Part shown: positions 32,538 through 43,073 of the stretch, in pieces
Layout: each line of letters opens with the position of its first letter
How positions within the stretch are numbered: the first letter of the stretch is position 1
Source: Eledone cirrhosa
Lineage: Eukaryota
Length of the DNA stretch: 64,000 nt
Reading direction: 5' to 3'
NCBI GenBank assembly: GCA_964016885.1
Contig: OZ024742.1
Coordinates: 255,006,001-255,070,000, forward strand
Notes under the pieces: model-generated
Seen by the model: the letters and a program-made list of their open reading frames with translations, nothing else
Databases searched by the model: none
What the model was told of the DNA's origin: nothing
Program-made: the position numbers and the translations under genes

Positions 32538-32866
32538 ATATAATAGAAAACGAAAAATCAGTGATGCATCTGAACTCAATTTATTGTGTGTTACAATTGT
32601 TTCGCCGGCGGACAGCTCGAGACGTGATCGTTGTGTGGATCTGTCTGATTCTGGACCCGCAGGTTCGACGGATACGTCTAATGATTTCGGAGCATGACGC
32701 GATCATTGTGTGGATCTGTTTGATTCTGGACCCGCTGGTTCGACGGACACGTCTAATGATTTCGGAGTATATTCTCTCACGTCTCGAGCTGTCCGCCGGC
32801 GAAACAATTGTAACACACAATAAATTGAGTTCAGATGCATCACTGATTTTTCGTTTTCTATTATAT
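32538..32866. repeat. 90-bp inverted repeat (32538-32627 / 32777-32866) enclosing a 75-bp-period direct duplication; PLE-pLTR-like fold-back element
   Basis: Arms are reverse complements by eye; direct copies at 32626-32693 and 32701-32768. Confidence 0.9.
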
Positions 32867-33079
32867 CATACTCTGCTCTGTATGAGCATAGAGTGCTCAA
32901 CCGGCATACCGCCTATGGAAGCATCTTAGCTACCATCAGACACACACACATATATATATATATATATATATATATATATATATATATATATATATATATA
33001 CATATGTGTGTATGTTAAAAGTAAAGAGAAATAAAGCAAATGACACAGTACATATATATATATGTACATATAGCATCAT

Positions 33080-34745
33080 TATCATCATGGTTTAATGTTA
33101 GTCTTTCCACACTTGCATAGGTTAGATGAGTTGTCCCATTGTGAGACAAGCCAGATCAGATGACTGTGTTTTATTTATACAGCGCTGATTTTGGACTGGT
33201 TTCTATGTTTGGATGCCCTTCCTAATGTCAACCACATTTACAGTGTGTACTGGGTGCTTTTTGTCATGACACCTACATGACCACTTTACAGTGAGGACTG
33301 GGTGAATTTTGTTGTGCTACCAACGCCAACAATTTACAGTGTGGAGTGTGTGCTTTTAGTCGTGGCACAAAAATTACCACTTTCCAGTGTGAACTGGGGG
33401 CTAGGGTACATCTGGCAAAGGTGCAGTGTGAGGGTGTGGATGGTGTATGGAAGAGGGTAAGAAAGGTAACGTAAAGGAAGGTGGTGAATACTAGATGTGT
33501 GCTTCAACACTTACCCATGGAAGGTGAGTCTTCTATATTAATGCATAATTCCAGAGATCTCGATCCTGTATCATGGCCTTTGGGAGGTTCAAGTTTACAA
33601 GGTCAGCTGTTATCACCTTATCACAAGGTATCCTAGGTCTTCCTACTCCATAGCTTCCATCAACTTTGAGTGCCCTGCACATTTCTATGCAGCTGTCATC
33701 CTTCATATGCATCACAAGTCCATACCACCACAATCTTCTCTCCTGGTGAGACAACTGCAGGAGAGGTATTTAACTAAGAGTAAGCCATTATATCTATCAG
33801 TTGTGGATCTAGTGAAGGCCTTCAACAGGGTCCCATGCTCTATAATCTGGAAGCTATGTGTAGACAAATGACTTGTAGGGGTTGTGCATGCCATGTATAG
33901 AGGAGCAGCCAGCATAGTGAGAGTTGGCAATGATTATTGTGATGAGTTTGAAGCACAGGTGGGAGTCTACCAGGGATCAGTCCTCAGCCCGCTTCTGTTT
34001 ATCATTGCCCTTTAGGCCATCATTGAGGAGTTTTAAATTGGCACTCCAGGGGAGCTCCTATTTGCTGATGACCTCTGTGCTCATAGCTGAATCTGCAGGA
34101 AAGTTAGTGGCAACATTTCAAGCATGGAAGAAGAACCTAGAGTTGAAAGGCCAAAAAGTAAATTTAGCAAAGACAAAAATCCTAGTAAGTAGGAACGAAG
34201 ATTATACCATCAGGAAAATGACATTGTTTGATGTATCATAAAGGGTTTGGCATAAATTCCATAAGGTGCATTCAATATAAACTATGGATGCACAAGTGAT
34301 GTAGTGGGATTGTAGGCAGGCTAATAGAAAAGATAAATTTTAAATGTAGCAGATACACTGGAGAAATGAGCACCAATAGCACACATAAAATAGATTTTCT
34401 CAGCTGCCAGGGGATCTCCATAGAAGTTGTTGACAGCATTTACTACCTAAGCAATCTAATTAGTAGTGGGGTGGATGTGCTGAAAGTTTGATAGCTAGAA
34501 TAAGAACAGGCTGGAAGATGTTTAGAGATTACCACTGCTAACAACAAAATGGTATTCTCTCAGATGGAAAAGTAGACTCTATGATACGTCTGTGCAATCT
34601 GAAATGTTATATGGCAGTGAAACATGGGCCTTGACTGCATGCAGAAGACCTGCGTGGCTAGAAAGAAATGAGTTGAGTATTCTCCAATGGATGTATAATG
34701 TTAGTGTACATAAACGACATAACATAAGCAAACTGAGAGAAAAAC
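33080..34745 (-). mobile_element. RTE LINE with 5' inversion (3' part minus 33080-33745; RT part inverted on plus 33746-34745)
   Basis: Minus ORF QERRLWWYG...GRPR plus 3' UTR; plus-strand decayed RT from VRQLQE through QGSVLSP to LREK. Confidence 0.8.
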
Positions 34746-35140
34746 AATGGCAGTGACTGCAGAGGACATGCGTTGACTGGAGAGAAATTAAGCAACCATG
34801 TTTCGTTGGATGTGCAATGTAAATGTGAGAGAAAGGTAGAGCTTGAATAAGCTGAAAGAGAAGCTGGGTTTAAGAGGAATCTGAGATGGTGTGCAGGAGA
34901 GAACACTGCATTGGTATGGTCATGATGGGCATGGACAATGACCAATGGGTGAAGAATTGCCAGAAAATCCCAGTGGAAGGAAGCCGCAGTTGAGGAAGTC
35001 CAAGAAAGACCTGGGCAGAGATTGTAAAGAGATGACGAAGGAACATGACAAGTGGAAGGATGCCATACTGAAAAGAACCTGTCCTACTCATGCAAGCATG
35101 GAGAAGTGAACGTAAAAGCGATGATGCAGATTATGATGAT
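34746..35140 (+). mobile_element. RTE LINE 3' fragment
   Basis: Homologous to the 3' end of the 58095-60320 copy; ends in a GATGATG tail. Confidence 0.75.
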
Positions 35141-35149
35141 GAACATCAT

Positions 35150-35900
35150 CATTATTTTACATCTGATTTTCTCTTCTCACAAGGGTGGGACGAGTCCTCT
35201 TCAGCACAGCATCTCTCCATTTCTCATGGTCCTTCGTTATCTTCTCTCTGAGCTTTAGTGATATAAAGTCAGTGCTCACCACCACCGCCATGTTTTCTGT
35301 AGTCTTCCTTCCACTGGGATTACTTGGTACTTCTTTACCCTTGCTTGGTTGTTTATGCACATTGGCATTGCACATCTATTAGAGCATGCTATGCTTTCTT
35401 CATTTCTCTCCAGCCTTCGCATATCCTCCACAGTTGCTGCCCATATCTCACTACCATGCAGCATCGTGCATCTCACACAGGCATTCTACAACCGACCTTT
35501 CATTCACAGGGAGAAACCCTTCATTGTCAACAGAGGAAGCAGCTCCGTAAACTTTTTCCACCCTGTCCTTATTCTAGATTCTATGGTCTCGGAGTATCCT
35601 ACTCACTTGCTAATTGGTTCACCTAGATATCGGAAGCTATCAACCACCTCTATAGATCCTACCTGCATTTGAAAAATTTGCCTATCACTAACACTTCTAC
35701 TATCAATTTTGCCTGAACATCTACTGCTTAAAAAGTTTTCCTTTCCTGTTAGTTTGCCTGCTTTCCCACTATACCTCACGTGTACCCAATATTTGCATTG
35801 TGTACATCTTATAGAGTTTATGCCTTTTCTACATATCGAGCATGGCCATTTCCATGGTGGAATCAGAGTCTTGTACTCTTTTGTACTTATCAATACTTTA
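35150..35900 (-). mobile_element. RTE LINE 3' fragment
   Basis: KWPCSICRKGINSIRCTQCKYWVH, VVDSFRYLG, MLHGSEIWA. Confidence 0.85.
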
Positions 35901-35999
35901 GATGATATTTGTTTGAATACATATATGTATATATATATCATATATGTGTATATATATATATCATCTATGTATATATATATCATCTATCTATATATATAT

Positions 36000-41019: not shown

Positions 41020-41180
41020 TATATATATATATATATATATATACATAAATATATAAACATATTATATATATACATAGATATATAAACATATTATATATAT
41101 ATATATATATATATATATATATATATATATATATATATATATATATATATATATATATATTTATATATAAATATATATAC
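41016..41180. repeat. (TA)n microsatellite
   Basis: Direct reading. Confidence 0.95.
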
Positions 41181-41433
41181 ACGTGTGTGTTTGTGCGTGT
41201 GTATACTTACATATACACACACATAGAAATATCTAGATTACACTTAAATAAGAAGAACGTGCCAGAAGACTTAATTTCTCTTGAAACTGTCCATTCTTGA
41301 GTTCAAAAGACCAGAAATTGTCCACGAGAGTCTGAGAGATTCAATAGAATGAGACACAAGCTAAAATATAAACTAAAAACTGACGAGTGAATACTTCAAA
41401 AATCTGAAATCTTTTTTTCCTCATTTTTTTGTT

Positions 41434-41655
41434 TGTTATTATTATTATTATTATTATTATTATTATTATTATTATTATTATTATTATTATTGCCATTATT
41501 GTTGTTATTATTATTATTGCTACTACTACTACTACTACTACTATTACCATAACCAACACCTACTACTACTACTACTACTACTACTACTACTACTATCACC
41601 ATCACCACCACCAGCATCACTCCACCACAACCACCACTAATACTACTACTAGTAG
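41434..41655. repeat. Compound (ATT)n/(ACT)n/(ACC)n microsatellite
   Basis: Direct reading. Confidence 0.95.
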
Positions 41656-41785
41656 TCATTTATTGTGAATGTTGTTCAATGTAGGTACTTTCTATATAGC
41701 ACCTTATTGTTTGTAAACGTGATGTTTAGAGTAAACATTTGTTCAATTAGCTTATATTTATGTTTTGATGTTTTAGTATGTTTTA

Positions 41786-42052
41786 GTGTGTATATATATA
41801 TATATATATATATATATATATATATATATATAAATACACACAAACACATATATGTGTGTATGTATACATACATATATATATATATATATATATATGCAGA
41901 TGTATGCTTGCCCCACCCCCATATATATATATATATGTATATATTCATATATATATTCATATATGTATGTATGTATATATATATATATATATATATATAT
42001 ATATATATATATATATATATATATACAGCATATATGTGTGTGTGTGTGTGTG
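41786..42052. repeat. (TA)n/(TG)n low-complexity tract
   Basis: Direct reading. Confidence 0.9.
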
Positions 42053-42640
42053 CTTTCTGTTACTTGGCAAAGAATTAACATGTCTAATGAATAAGAACAG
42101 AAGAAAGAGAATGAAAGGTTAATAGAATCTGACAGAAGAAATCAAGTGGGAAGAGAAGGGGAAAGGAAGAAAAACTAAATGAGACATAAACATATATGTG
42201 TGTATGTATATATATGTAAAACATATATATATATGTGTGTGTGCGTGTATTAGTAGTACTGGTGCTGTAATTTTGTAGTGGTGGAGCCGCAAGGAAACAA
42301 ACCTGGCATACACTGTTAAGCGTTTGGCACTAGGAAGGACATCCAGCAGAAGAAAGCAAGCCAAAATGAAATGTATGAGCAAGACATGATCTGCTGACAT
42401 GCCCGTCTCACTTCAGAACGTGACAGCCCTTATAACCTAAAGATGGAAAATAGGCATAATATGGTGATGAGAATATTATATATATATAATTAAATATTGA
42501 TTATTCTCTAATACTTAAACATCTCAATGAATGGATAAAATATATAGATAAAATGTCAATTAGGGAAGCAATATCACATTTTAAATTTAAGTGAAAAAGG
42601 TCTCTTTATGGGAGTATAAGTCAAACAGATCAAAATAAAT

Positions 42641-43073
42641 TTTAGTCTATCTCACTTATATATATCGATCTCCATGCCAAGGTTTCATTTGTGGAAGAAG
42701 TAACTATTGGAAAAGAACAATTTTTGAAGAATTCACAAATTCGTCAGGGGAGTATTCTTCAATTCAAAGAGATCATATTTATCATGAAATTTTACATATC
42801 GTTGCCAGTCCAGCAATTATGTAATTGAAACGTTACATGAACAAATGTCTCTTAATATTAGGAATACATGACAGGCCTACAATACTGTTAGCAATAGCAG
42901 CCAAAAGCCCGTCTGATACAGCTCAACAGATCAGATAAATATGGTCTCATTGAATTGAAGGATACTCCACTAATGAATTTGTGAATCCTTCAAATGTTAG
43001 TCTTTTTTAATAGTTGCTTCTTCCACAAATGAAACCAAGTAGGGAGATCGATATATAAGTGAGATAGACTAAA
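42641..43073 (+). mobile_element. Old fold-back element: ~65-bp inverted repeat (42641-42708 / 43009-43073) with a degenerate hammerhead at 42961-43049
   Basis: CUCCA CUAAUGA AUUUGUG...CACAAAU GAAAC CAA GUA GGGAG. Confidence 0.6.

Follow-up and report, generated by a model that had tools for sequence, protein, structure and literature searches.

Published insertions of EN+ Penelope-like elements (PLEs) sit in (TA)n targets and combine a partial tandem with an adjoining inverted 5′-truncated copy and a tail on one side (PMC8557442 Fig. 2), and head-to-head is their commonest arrangement (PMC3846280). The origin of these tandem and inverted structures has been named as an open question (PMC8557442). 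A purified PLE protein cuts and extends both DNA strands, with two reverse transcription start sites bounding the tail, and a dimer has been predicted (PMC11167929). PLEs are also said to depend on element-specific pLTRs (PMC3846280). Published evidence derives retrozymes from PLE pLTRs (10.64898/2026.07.22.740005), and arrays of metazoan retrozymes with up to 62–300 units are on record (PMC7229834; 10.64898/2026.07.22.740005).

We analyzed a 64,000-nt stretch of Eledone cirrhosa DNA, referred to here as the window. Its features are as follows, with a strand given wherever one was assigned.

1–28009, − strand: E1, some 50 non-coding units of ~556 bp arranged in tandem, the array continuing past the left edge of the window
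28010–28266, + strand: inverted copy of the E1 unit, 5′-truncated, with an intact hammerhead at 28103–28184, ending in (TA)n
31539–32400: E9, fragment of a LINE RT, inverted in its 5′ part (− strand 31539–31891, + strand from 31892), with a 37-nt duplication
32538–32940: E2, 90-nt arms (32538–32627 and 32777–32866) that are 100% identical, with a spacer of two 75-nt repeats
36720–38755, − strand: main copy of an autonomous PLE, 5′-truncated and decayed, with RT, Cx4CxxC linker and C-terminal GIY-YIG
38747–38966, + strand: inverted upstream piece of the 36720 PLE, P0002 aa 291–364
38966–39803: E3, inverted copy, partial unit and full 429-bp non-coding unit, arms 95.2% identical
39815–40536: E4, head-to-head pair of 5′-truncated 3′ ends from the 36720 PLE family, arms 88.7% identical
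40660–41019: E5, near-perfect hairpin, arms 40721–40871 and 40873–41019, 1-nt spacer, 92.7% identity
42572–43132: E6, old fold-back, arms 78.2% identical, 143-nt spacer
56720–57212: E7, fold-back in (TA)n, 92% arms, 41-nt one-sided extension
57213–57687: E8, fold-back, 77% arms, 45-nt one-sided extension
63710–64000, + strand: second PLE ORF, N-terminal region, canonical Neptune-like (LSKGLKF), cut at the window edge

All six inverted duplications listed in an earlier sequence-only reading of this DNA exist, with arm identities of 78.2–100%; E7 and E8 were absent from that list. E3 reproduces exactly the published EN+ PLE layout (PMC8557442 Fig. 2). Like EN+ PLEs (PMC8557442, PMC3846280), the insertions show 5′ truncation, an adjoining inverted copy, head-to-head arrangement, a one-sided tail and (TA)n targets, as well as minimal type I hammerheads near the 3′ end with a palindromic helix III. 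They differ in being mostly very short (150–800 bp) and in having tails of 41–75 nt instead of the published 30–40, and one of them contains an internally primed inverted arm, unlike the published layout. The head-to-head architecture with outward ribozymes is real but already published, and the link to PLEs and their inverted 5′ copies that the sequence-only reading had drawn is supported, being textbook knowledge. We consider it probable (roughly 0.8) that the fold-backs arose through ordinary target-primed insertion into (TA)n-rich DNA, carried out by PLE RT/GIY-YIG proteins on mixed templates.

The 36720 PLE and its relatives

The main copy at 36720 has a reading frame at 38563–37154 with three internal stops and matches an Octopus vulgaris protein at 68%. 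The RT motifs LYPSI, xIG and YVDD and the C-terminal VVYSIRC..YIGET lie in a single RT + GIY-YIG ORF, with the Pfam RVT_1 score under the cut-off. The 3′ UTR contains a hammerhead (36915–36959, U4A lesion) and a tail, terminating in (TA)n. This copy is 5′-truncated, and a partial tandem is found in E3 only. The main copy begins at P0002 aa 349, and the inverted arm supplies aa 291–348, which are missing from it. The inversion carries a 48-nt duplication and a junction overlap of up to 9 nt, which together appear to be a signature of twin priming.

E4 (39815–40530) is 92–93% identical to the 3′ end of the 36720–38966 PLE, last codons included, and is a truncated autonomous PLE that moved in cis. 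Its left arm (39815–40097, − strand) has a 49-nt tail and a hammerhead with an intact core (40013–40057); its right arm (40106–40536, + strand) begins in the last 14 EN codons, has no tail, and carries a hammerhead with a C3G lesion (40350–40394). The core is intact in one of the three copies of this family and damaged in the other two. The hammerhead near the 3′ end, the inverted 5′-truncated copy and the one-sided tail that characterize EN+ PLEs are all present in the 36720–38966 PLE and E4. The missing right-arm tail of E4 might reflect later deletion beside the microsatellite.

The 36720 family has a C-terminal endonuclease and, in the stretch from RT motif A to motif B, a TERT-sized insertion. 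The distance between these motifs was 134–137 aa (40 of 79 proteins scored), compared with 65–66 aa in Neptune-like relatives. A structure model of a relative, P0038 (pLDDT 85.9), gave TERTs as the best PDB matches (E = 1.6e-6), and a telomerase-related RT is thus predicted through this relative rather than from the window's own protein. A PDB sequence search with P0038 returned no relative, and all clusters obtained from the ESM Atlas were either unnamed or RT-like. The linker CIDNKCIIC...C (Cx4CxxC) before GIY-YIG fits the CX2-5CxxC pattern of Neptune and Nematis and is short, as in Nematis (PMC8557442 Fig. S2). Neptune and Nematis have GxKF and no fingers insertion, however, whereas GxKF is replaced by LPPKF in six of the seven aligned relatives that reach this motif. 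The RW motif and loss of GxKF are shared with the Hydra clade, which differs in DKT, CxCX5C and the lack of CCHH and IFD; in the 36720 family DKS predominates, the linker is Cx4CxxC, two Cys and two His are kept, and the long insertion is present. An insertion at the IFD position is also found in Naiad/Chlamys, in which the endonuclease is N-terminal. Compared by motifs, the trait combination matches none of the descriptions of Neptune, Nematis, Hydra or Naiad (PMC8557442). A PLE with a C-terminal endonuclease and a TERT-sized fingers insertion would, if true, change the published division of PLEs into canonical and N-terminal-EN types. Penelope with IFD, U3A8, octopus hammerheads and Penelope twin priming were undescribed in the literature covered, an absence that carries little weight at partial coverage (few subscription papers, no Repbase/Dfam).

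Unlike L1, PLEs lack a poly(A) tail, and their re-priming mostly falls close to the 3′ end, giving true inverted repeats. Twin priming of L1, as reportedly set out by Ostertag and Kazazian in 2001, is said to produce an inverted upstream segment, junction microhomology and a short duplication, and these features recur in the 36720–38966 PLE and in the LINE at 31539, the − strand piece of which was identified by RVT_1 (E = 1.8e-8). The LINE has no hammerhead and the inverted arm of the PLE ORF has no ribozyme, yet the sense strands diverge in both. The outward rule therefore reflects priming and not the ribozyme.

Tandem units and short fold-backs

The E1 unit contains a type I hammerhead, ACUCC-CUGAUGA-long stem II-GAAA-CUAAUUAG-UU-GGAGU. 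Its GC content is 36.5%, all six frames are interrupted, and no PLE profile matched. The relaxed scan found 40 hammerheads in the array, all on the − strand, and 40 have an intact core in about 50 units. Substitutions averaged 7.2 among 46 aligned units (47 anchors), and haplotypes repeat every 7–8 units; we infer amplification or homogenization at the DNA level. The inverted end is 95.3% identical to the adjoining unit, over 200 nt the same as 28 of 47 anchored units, and is joined through a 3-nt microhomology (AGT). Drift in the terminal unit (3 versus 0 changes) was too weak to use.

E3 consists of an inverted copy (38966–39236, − strand; hammerhead 39138–39176), a partial unit without a ribozyme (39234–39374, + strand), and the full unit (39375–39803, + strand; hammerhead 39548–39590). 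A tail of ~45 nt is present on the + copies only, and the junction shows a 3-nt microhomology (TTA). The U.U pair at the base of stem II resembles that of axolotl HHR_Amex2. Uneven divergence between A and D (9/173 versus 0/94) was too weak to use.

A retrozyme is expected to have two or more successive tandem units that carry a complete type I hammerhead, and E1, a retrozyme-like satellite, has them. E3 has one full and one partial unit and falls short of that number; by analogy, it may work like a retrozyme monomer. To judge from their sequences, the 556-bp and 429-bp units both appear retrozyme-like, and only these two show tandem junctions. Neither E1 nor E3 matched the only PLE 3′ end in the window. 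Metazoan non-LTR retrozymes share with these units the non-coding tandem layout, the GC content (36–37%) and type I hammerheads (PMC7229834; 10.64898/2026.07.22.740005). The 556-bp unit exceeds the 150–450 bp given in the former paper and lies within the 51–972 bp of the latter; its helix II of ~50 nt is unlike theirs, and terminal inverted copies, present here, are no theme in the parts of the two papers covered.

In E2, the spacer repeats run on continuously from the left arm, and a 75-nt extension on the right reaches (CA)n(TA)n. The − strand hammerhead is degenerate (GAAA-CAATTG-UA with a predicted long stem II; core CCGUCGA, two mismatches), and the right arm carries only its 3′ half. A + strand CUAAUGA reading proved to be a junction chimera without stem I or II. 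E5 contains minimal U3-A8 hammerheads, CCUU-UUGAAAA-GCAG..CUGC-GAAA-CCGG-UA-AAGG, and a 61-nt extension (40660–40720), with (TA)n flanking both sides. Both long-stem-II hammerheads of E6 (42670–42752, − strand; 42965–43046, + strand) are degenerate, with core lesions. A suspected GIY-YIG remnant in the E6 spacer was unsupported by Pfam, the PLE family profile or tblastn with 15 Neptune-like proteins, and phmmer gave two matches, both repeat proteins. The scan detected no hammerhead in E7, and one in its spacer would require three core lesions. E8 has an outward U3-A8 hammerhead (57411–57450, − strand), inside which the right arm ends. From their position, the extensions of E2, E5, E7 and E8 are putative tails. 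Co-folding predicted a double-hammerhead form for E1 and E5 and not for E3 or E4. A related-locus search of prokaryotic genomes for parents of E1, E2, E3, E5, E6 and E8 gave 35 pattern matches, none confirmed.

Hammerhead scans and outward orientation

The strict type I scan gave 43 matches in the window, 38 in the E1 array (all − strand) and five elsewhere. Over 28300–64000 it found four loci, compared with a shuffle mean of 0.005 (maximum 1; 200 shuffles). The relaxed scan of 28001–64000 found 13 loci versus a mean of 2.7 (maximum 7; 60 shuffles), and six intact cores versus 0.1 (maximum 1); both descriptors (U3-A8 core, offsets) were drawn up with the elements already known, a freedom that the shuffles do not cover. 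Ten of the 13 relaxed loci fall within fold-back arms or at the PLE 3′ end, each of them oriented away from the centre; the other three equal the number expected by chance. Type I hammerheads within the fold-backs at 28010, 38967, 39815, 40721 and 42572 all point outward. The proposed outward rule held for every scan locus in these structures; at 32538 the core is degenerate and was detected by neither scan.

Rfam returned no hammerhead family and only miRNA matches below the gathering score, arising from hairpins and (TA)n. The rule matters mainly for annotation, since such fold-backs are liable to be mis-called as MITEs or, given these miRNA-like scores, as microRNA hairpins.

A (TA)≥4 run lay within 15 nt of 9 of 16 element ends (background 6%), the ends being set by eye and (TA)n runs being shared between neighbours. 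Target-site duplications were unreadable at the fold-back ends because these lie in (TA)n. One-sided extensions reaching the next microsatellite measured 75, 61, 45, 41 and 25 nt.

The 3′ ends of the fold-backs, where common recognition signals would be expected, were unrelated in 35 of 36 pairs. They are not all independent of known elements, E4 being the 3′ end of the 36720 PLE. The one remaining pair, E2 and E5, showed weak similarity (raw p = 0.0015) that was lost on correction, as was that between the E1 and E6 hammerheads (raw p = 0.012, 28 pairs). It had been proposed that all of these elements are small ribozyme RNAs moved in trans by a single PLE protein, which makes them pile up at this locus. 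The PLE origin stands, and the common geometry, (TA)n targets, hammerheads, borderline E2/E5 similarity and published derivation of retrozymes from PLE pLTRs (10.64898/2026.07.22.740005) agree with this proposal. We nevertheless regard a single protein as improbable in light of the unrelated ends, the autonomous family to which E4 belongs, two PLE lineages in the window that are only 21–28% identical, the range of arm divergence (0–23%) and the reliance on element-specific pLTRs (PMC3846280). The divergence range also indicates successive insertions rather than a single burst.

Six of the seven non-array elements have arms that differ by 5–23%, and spacers are asymmetric, tandems partial and tails one-sided, a picture that neither chimeric reads nor TIR elements present. 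Assembly chimeras or an origin at the DNA level (MITE/foldback transposons, or replication forks that switch template in AT-rich sequence), with the ribozymes as passengers, would suit the identical E2 arms, the lack of a detected hammerhead in E7 and the instability of (TA)n; inversion at the DNA level leaves the ten outward hammerheads and both divergent inverted ORFs without a reason, and we give these accounts very little credence.

Models for the inverted arms

In target-primed insertion as we envisage it, the PLE enzyme would cut both strands and each DNA end would prime cDNA on the element RNA. Synthesis would mostly start at either of two sites close to the 3′ end of that RNA, so that just one side receives a 40- to 75-nt tail, but now and then it would start at an internal position. 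Both cDNAs would abort early and be joined by 3–9 nt of microhomology or a few added bases. As each cDNA begins in the 3′ portion of its RNA template, the 5′ ends meet centrally and the 3′ ends lie towards the flanks; with the hammerhead on the sense strand 50–220 nt from the 3′ end, outward orientation becomes obligatory. E4 and the 36720 copy would stem from autonomous PLE RNA, E1 and E3 from non-coding retrozyme RNAs in tandem or circular form, and E2, E5, E6 and E8 from short 3′ ends; several PLE families, active at different times, probably served these templates.

The E4 arms are non-nested, with the 49-nt 3′ tail only on the left and 200 nt of 5′ sequence only on the right. Given that each arm of E4 and of the 36720 PLE holds sequence that the other lacks, neither is the fold-back of a single cDNA, which favours twin priming; these two copies hint that the PLE enzyme may prime from both cut DNA ends. 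Alternatively, within a PLE origin, an antisense strand, be it an antisense RNA or the first cDNA, might snap back on itself at the 3′ end and be copied into a head-to-head hairpin on a single template, a self-priming route put forward in PMC3846280. The inverted arms of E1, E3 and E5 are nested in the main copy, E1 and E3 with 3-nt microhomology and E5 with arms sharing their start base at a 1-nt centre, and these fit cDNA snap-back equally well; the TCTAGA palindrome at the E4 junction and the identical E2 arms are also in keeping with it. From one cDNA, however, self-priming cannot yield E4, or the 36720 PLE, in which the inverted arm extends 5′ of the main copy. The 12 and 11 private substitutions of the E4 arms (5 in a third family copy) give no sign of a shared template, although aging fits too. 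We consider self-priming a plausible minority account. A fuller version of twin priming, in which a dimeric RT-endonuclease of an undescribed widespread clade (C-terminal GIY-YIG with a telomerase-sized fingers insertion) operates and several such PLEs each spread hammerhead retrozymes of their own, natural U3-A8 cores among them, to the same (TA)n sink, is tentative and, taken whole, rather unlikely. Arm nesting offers a cheap genome-wide test to separate twin priming from snap-back.

In modeled read-through RNA of the fold-backs, 35 of 35 to 80 of 82 hammerhead nucleotides were paired with the other arm. With the ribozyme buried in long duplexes, fold-back insertions are predicted to be ribozyme-dead sources of dsRNA.

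Fold-backs and hammerhead motifs

Self-comparison of the window recovered all six inverted duplications that the sequence-only reading had claimed, namely E1 (the inverted end, 28010-28266, of a tandem array), E2 (32538-32940), E3 (38966-39803), E4 (39815-40536), E5 (40660-41019) and E6 (42572-43132), as well as three more, at 31539, 56761 and 57258. The last two are adjoining fold-backs, E7 and E8, in 56720-57687. Rfam gave no hammerhead family match, as one might expect for minimal type I motifs, and we therefore wrote custom descriptors. The strict descriptor gave 43 matches, of which 38 fell within the array, every one on the minus strand, and five elsewhere.

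Strict hammerhead matches outside the array
28103-28184, plus strand, inverted array end (E1)
39138-39176, minus strand, E3
39548-39590, plus strand, E3
40797-40834, minus strand, E5
40910-40944, plus strand, E5

With descriptors composed once the elements had been seen, the motif rate exceeded that of shuffled sequence: the strict scan found four loci in 28300-64000 (0.005 in shuffles, n = 200), and the relaxed scan found 13 past 28000 (shuffle mean 2.7, maximum 7; 60 shuffles), including six intact cores (mean 0.1, maximum 1). The relaxed descriptor overlooked the E5 right-arm hammerhead. Ten of the 13 relaxed loci fell within arms of fold-backs or within a Penelope-like element (PLE) at its 3' end, and all ten pointed outward, as had been proposed; the remaining three are at chance level. 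The probability of an all-outward arrangement by chance is 0.03 for five elements and 0.002 for nine inversions.

A hammerhead had been assigned to every member, and this was borne out for E1, E3, E4, E5 and, with core lesions, E6 but not for E2, which failed both scans; a long stem II is predicted on its minus strand, where GAAA-CAATTG-UA is also present, yet its core is CCGUCGA. A pair of 75-nt repeats, sharing 92% identity, makes up the E2 spacer (32621-32770) and duplicates the degenerate hammerhead's 5' half. No hammerhead was found in E7, and E8 has one in its left arm only. The E5 and E8 cores, UUGANAA, have a U3-A8 pair in place of C3-G8. Natural U3-A8 cores exist; our literature search for them found no paper. 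Exchangeability of the C3-G8 pair is described, for C3G/G8C, in the consulted part of PMC11167929. A peptide in the E6 spacer (42788-42931) was dropped as a GIY-YIG fragment, with no support from four kinds of search.

Identity and relatedness of the elements

Both E4 arms match the 3' end of a decayed PLE (36720-38755), with 93.3% and 92.2% identity, and the right one begins within the last 14 endonuclease codons; E4 is not a small independent RNA. E3 comprises an inverted copy without a tail, a partial unit and a full non-coding 429-bp unit, with a tail of ~45 nt, and matches the PLE insertion layout illustrated in PMC8557442 (Fig. 2). E2, E5, E6 and E8 each represent a short 3' end: a microsatellite adjoins one end, and at the other 25-75 extra nt, putatively tail-like, precede the next microsatellite. 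A tail is backed by a second copy only in E3 and E4. E2 is inserted in (TA)n directly past the 3' end of a LINE at 31539-32400.

The array (1-28009, unit ~556 bp) contains 47 anchored units, about 50 in total, which differ on average by 7.2 substitutions, with haplotypes repeating each 7-8 units; over 200 nt, its inverted end is identical to 28 of the 47. A G-to-A change disrupts a helix II pair in 9 of 46 units, and divergence is greatest in the last unit, with 11 substitutions.

Three of 28 sense-strand pairs across families reached raw p < 0.02 and one of 36 terminal pairs p < 0.05 (E2-E5, p = 0.0015), but none in either set was significant after correction. The families were mostly unrelated in sequence, as claimed; E4 could be linked to an autonomous PLE in the window by its 3' end. 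Relatives of a second, Neptune-like PLE, whose ORF begins at 63710 and is cut at the window edge (64000), share 21-28% identity with the first PLE family. Given that E4 is a PLE 3' end, that the 3' ends are mostly unrelated and that this second PLE is so distant, the idea of one machinery mobilising small ribozyme RNAs was not supported, whereas the earlier observation was largely right. Element ends, set by eye, lay within 15 nt of (TA)n with n at least 4 in 9 of 16 cases (background 6%), and the spread of arm divergence (0-23%) suggests that the elements entered (TA)n one after another.

Priming and the outward orientation

The fold-back architecture is already known from PLEs, as had been stated: in the parts of the sources consulted, head-to-head is the most frequent inverted arrangement (PMC3846280), and insertions show an adjoining inverted 5'-truncated copy, a one-sided tail and (TA)n targets (PMC8557442). 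Since every cDNA is initiated at a target end, on the 3' portion of its RNA, sense 3' ends face the flanks. Sense strands also diverge in two inversions with no ribozyme in the inverted arm, that of the LINE at 31539-32400 and that in the reverse transcriptase (RT) region of the long PLE (36720-38755, minus strand; inverted piece 38747-38966, plus strand). The outward rule belongs to priming rather than to the ribozyme, which was dispensable for PLE insertion in vitro according to the portion of PMC11167929 consulted. We put the probability that the fold-backs arose by PLE-type priming at roughly 0.8. The LINE, which we take from its motifs to be RTE-like, has a 5' inversion and a 37-nt duplication.

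Twin priming is a known mechanism, and snap-back of a single cDNA might also produce inverted arms; E1 and E3 (3-nt microhomologies) and E5 (1-nt centre) are compatible with both. The inverted arm of the long PLE, however, corresponds to aa 291-364 of its relative P0002 and carries sequence missing from the main copy, which begins at aa 349; the junction has a 48-nt duplication and an overlap of up to 9 nt. In E4, a 49-nt tail is present in the left arm alone and 200 nt of 5' sequence in the right arm alone, although subsequent deletion could explain these non-nested arms. Because snap-back copies nothing beyond its own cDNA, both elements need a second RNA-templated priming, and we lean slightly toward twin priming as the principal route. 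Nicking and extension of both strands from two start sites, described for an anole PLE in the consulted part of PMC11167929, fits such a second priming. In a read-through fold-back RNA, most ribozyme bases would pair with the opposite arm.

The PLE families and their surroundings

The best protein match of the PLE frame was an Octopus vulgaris protein (68%), pointing to a probable octopod host. The first PLE family comprises 78 relatives (P0002-P0079) beside the long PLE (36720-38966), with 21 sequences aligned, and is characterized by a C-terminal GIY-YIG, a short Cx4CxxC linker, DKS, and LPPKF replacing GxKF. Its RT motifs A and B are 134-137 aa apart (both present in 40 of 79 proteins), compared with 65-66 aa in Neptune-like relatives (two of four scored), the excess being an insertion of ~70 aa. 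Distances that we counted from Fig. S1 of PMC8557442 were about 65 for canonical PLEs, about 90 for one Naiad, and about 120 and 155 for two TERTs; the predicted structure of one relative was nearest to TERT. The consulted text of PMC8557442 confines the insertion in the fingers domain, among endonuclease-containing PLEs, to clades with an N-terminal endonuclease, and six motifs of the family were not found in its supplement text, where control motifs were. Judged by clade descriptions, the family appears to fit no clade as defined there. The part of PMC13282606 consulted gives 31 Penelope-like families as recently active in O. vulgaris, with no mention of ribozymes.

Outside the array, the window is AT-rich DNA composed of microsatellites and of fragments of LINEs and PLEs. 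Several LINE copies, decayed and lying in either orientation, occupy 28270-30900, 33050-35900, 53900-55670 and 58100-60320, those at 53901-55653 and 58108-59991 being 82-90% identical, and 48-bp repeats of the ACCACTTTACAG type occur in decayed LINE regions at 28400-28500 and 33231-33402. By eye, two long LINE-like elements (44500-47690, plus strand; 47770-53000, minus strand) lie tail to tail at (TAA)25.
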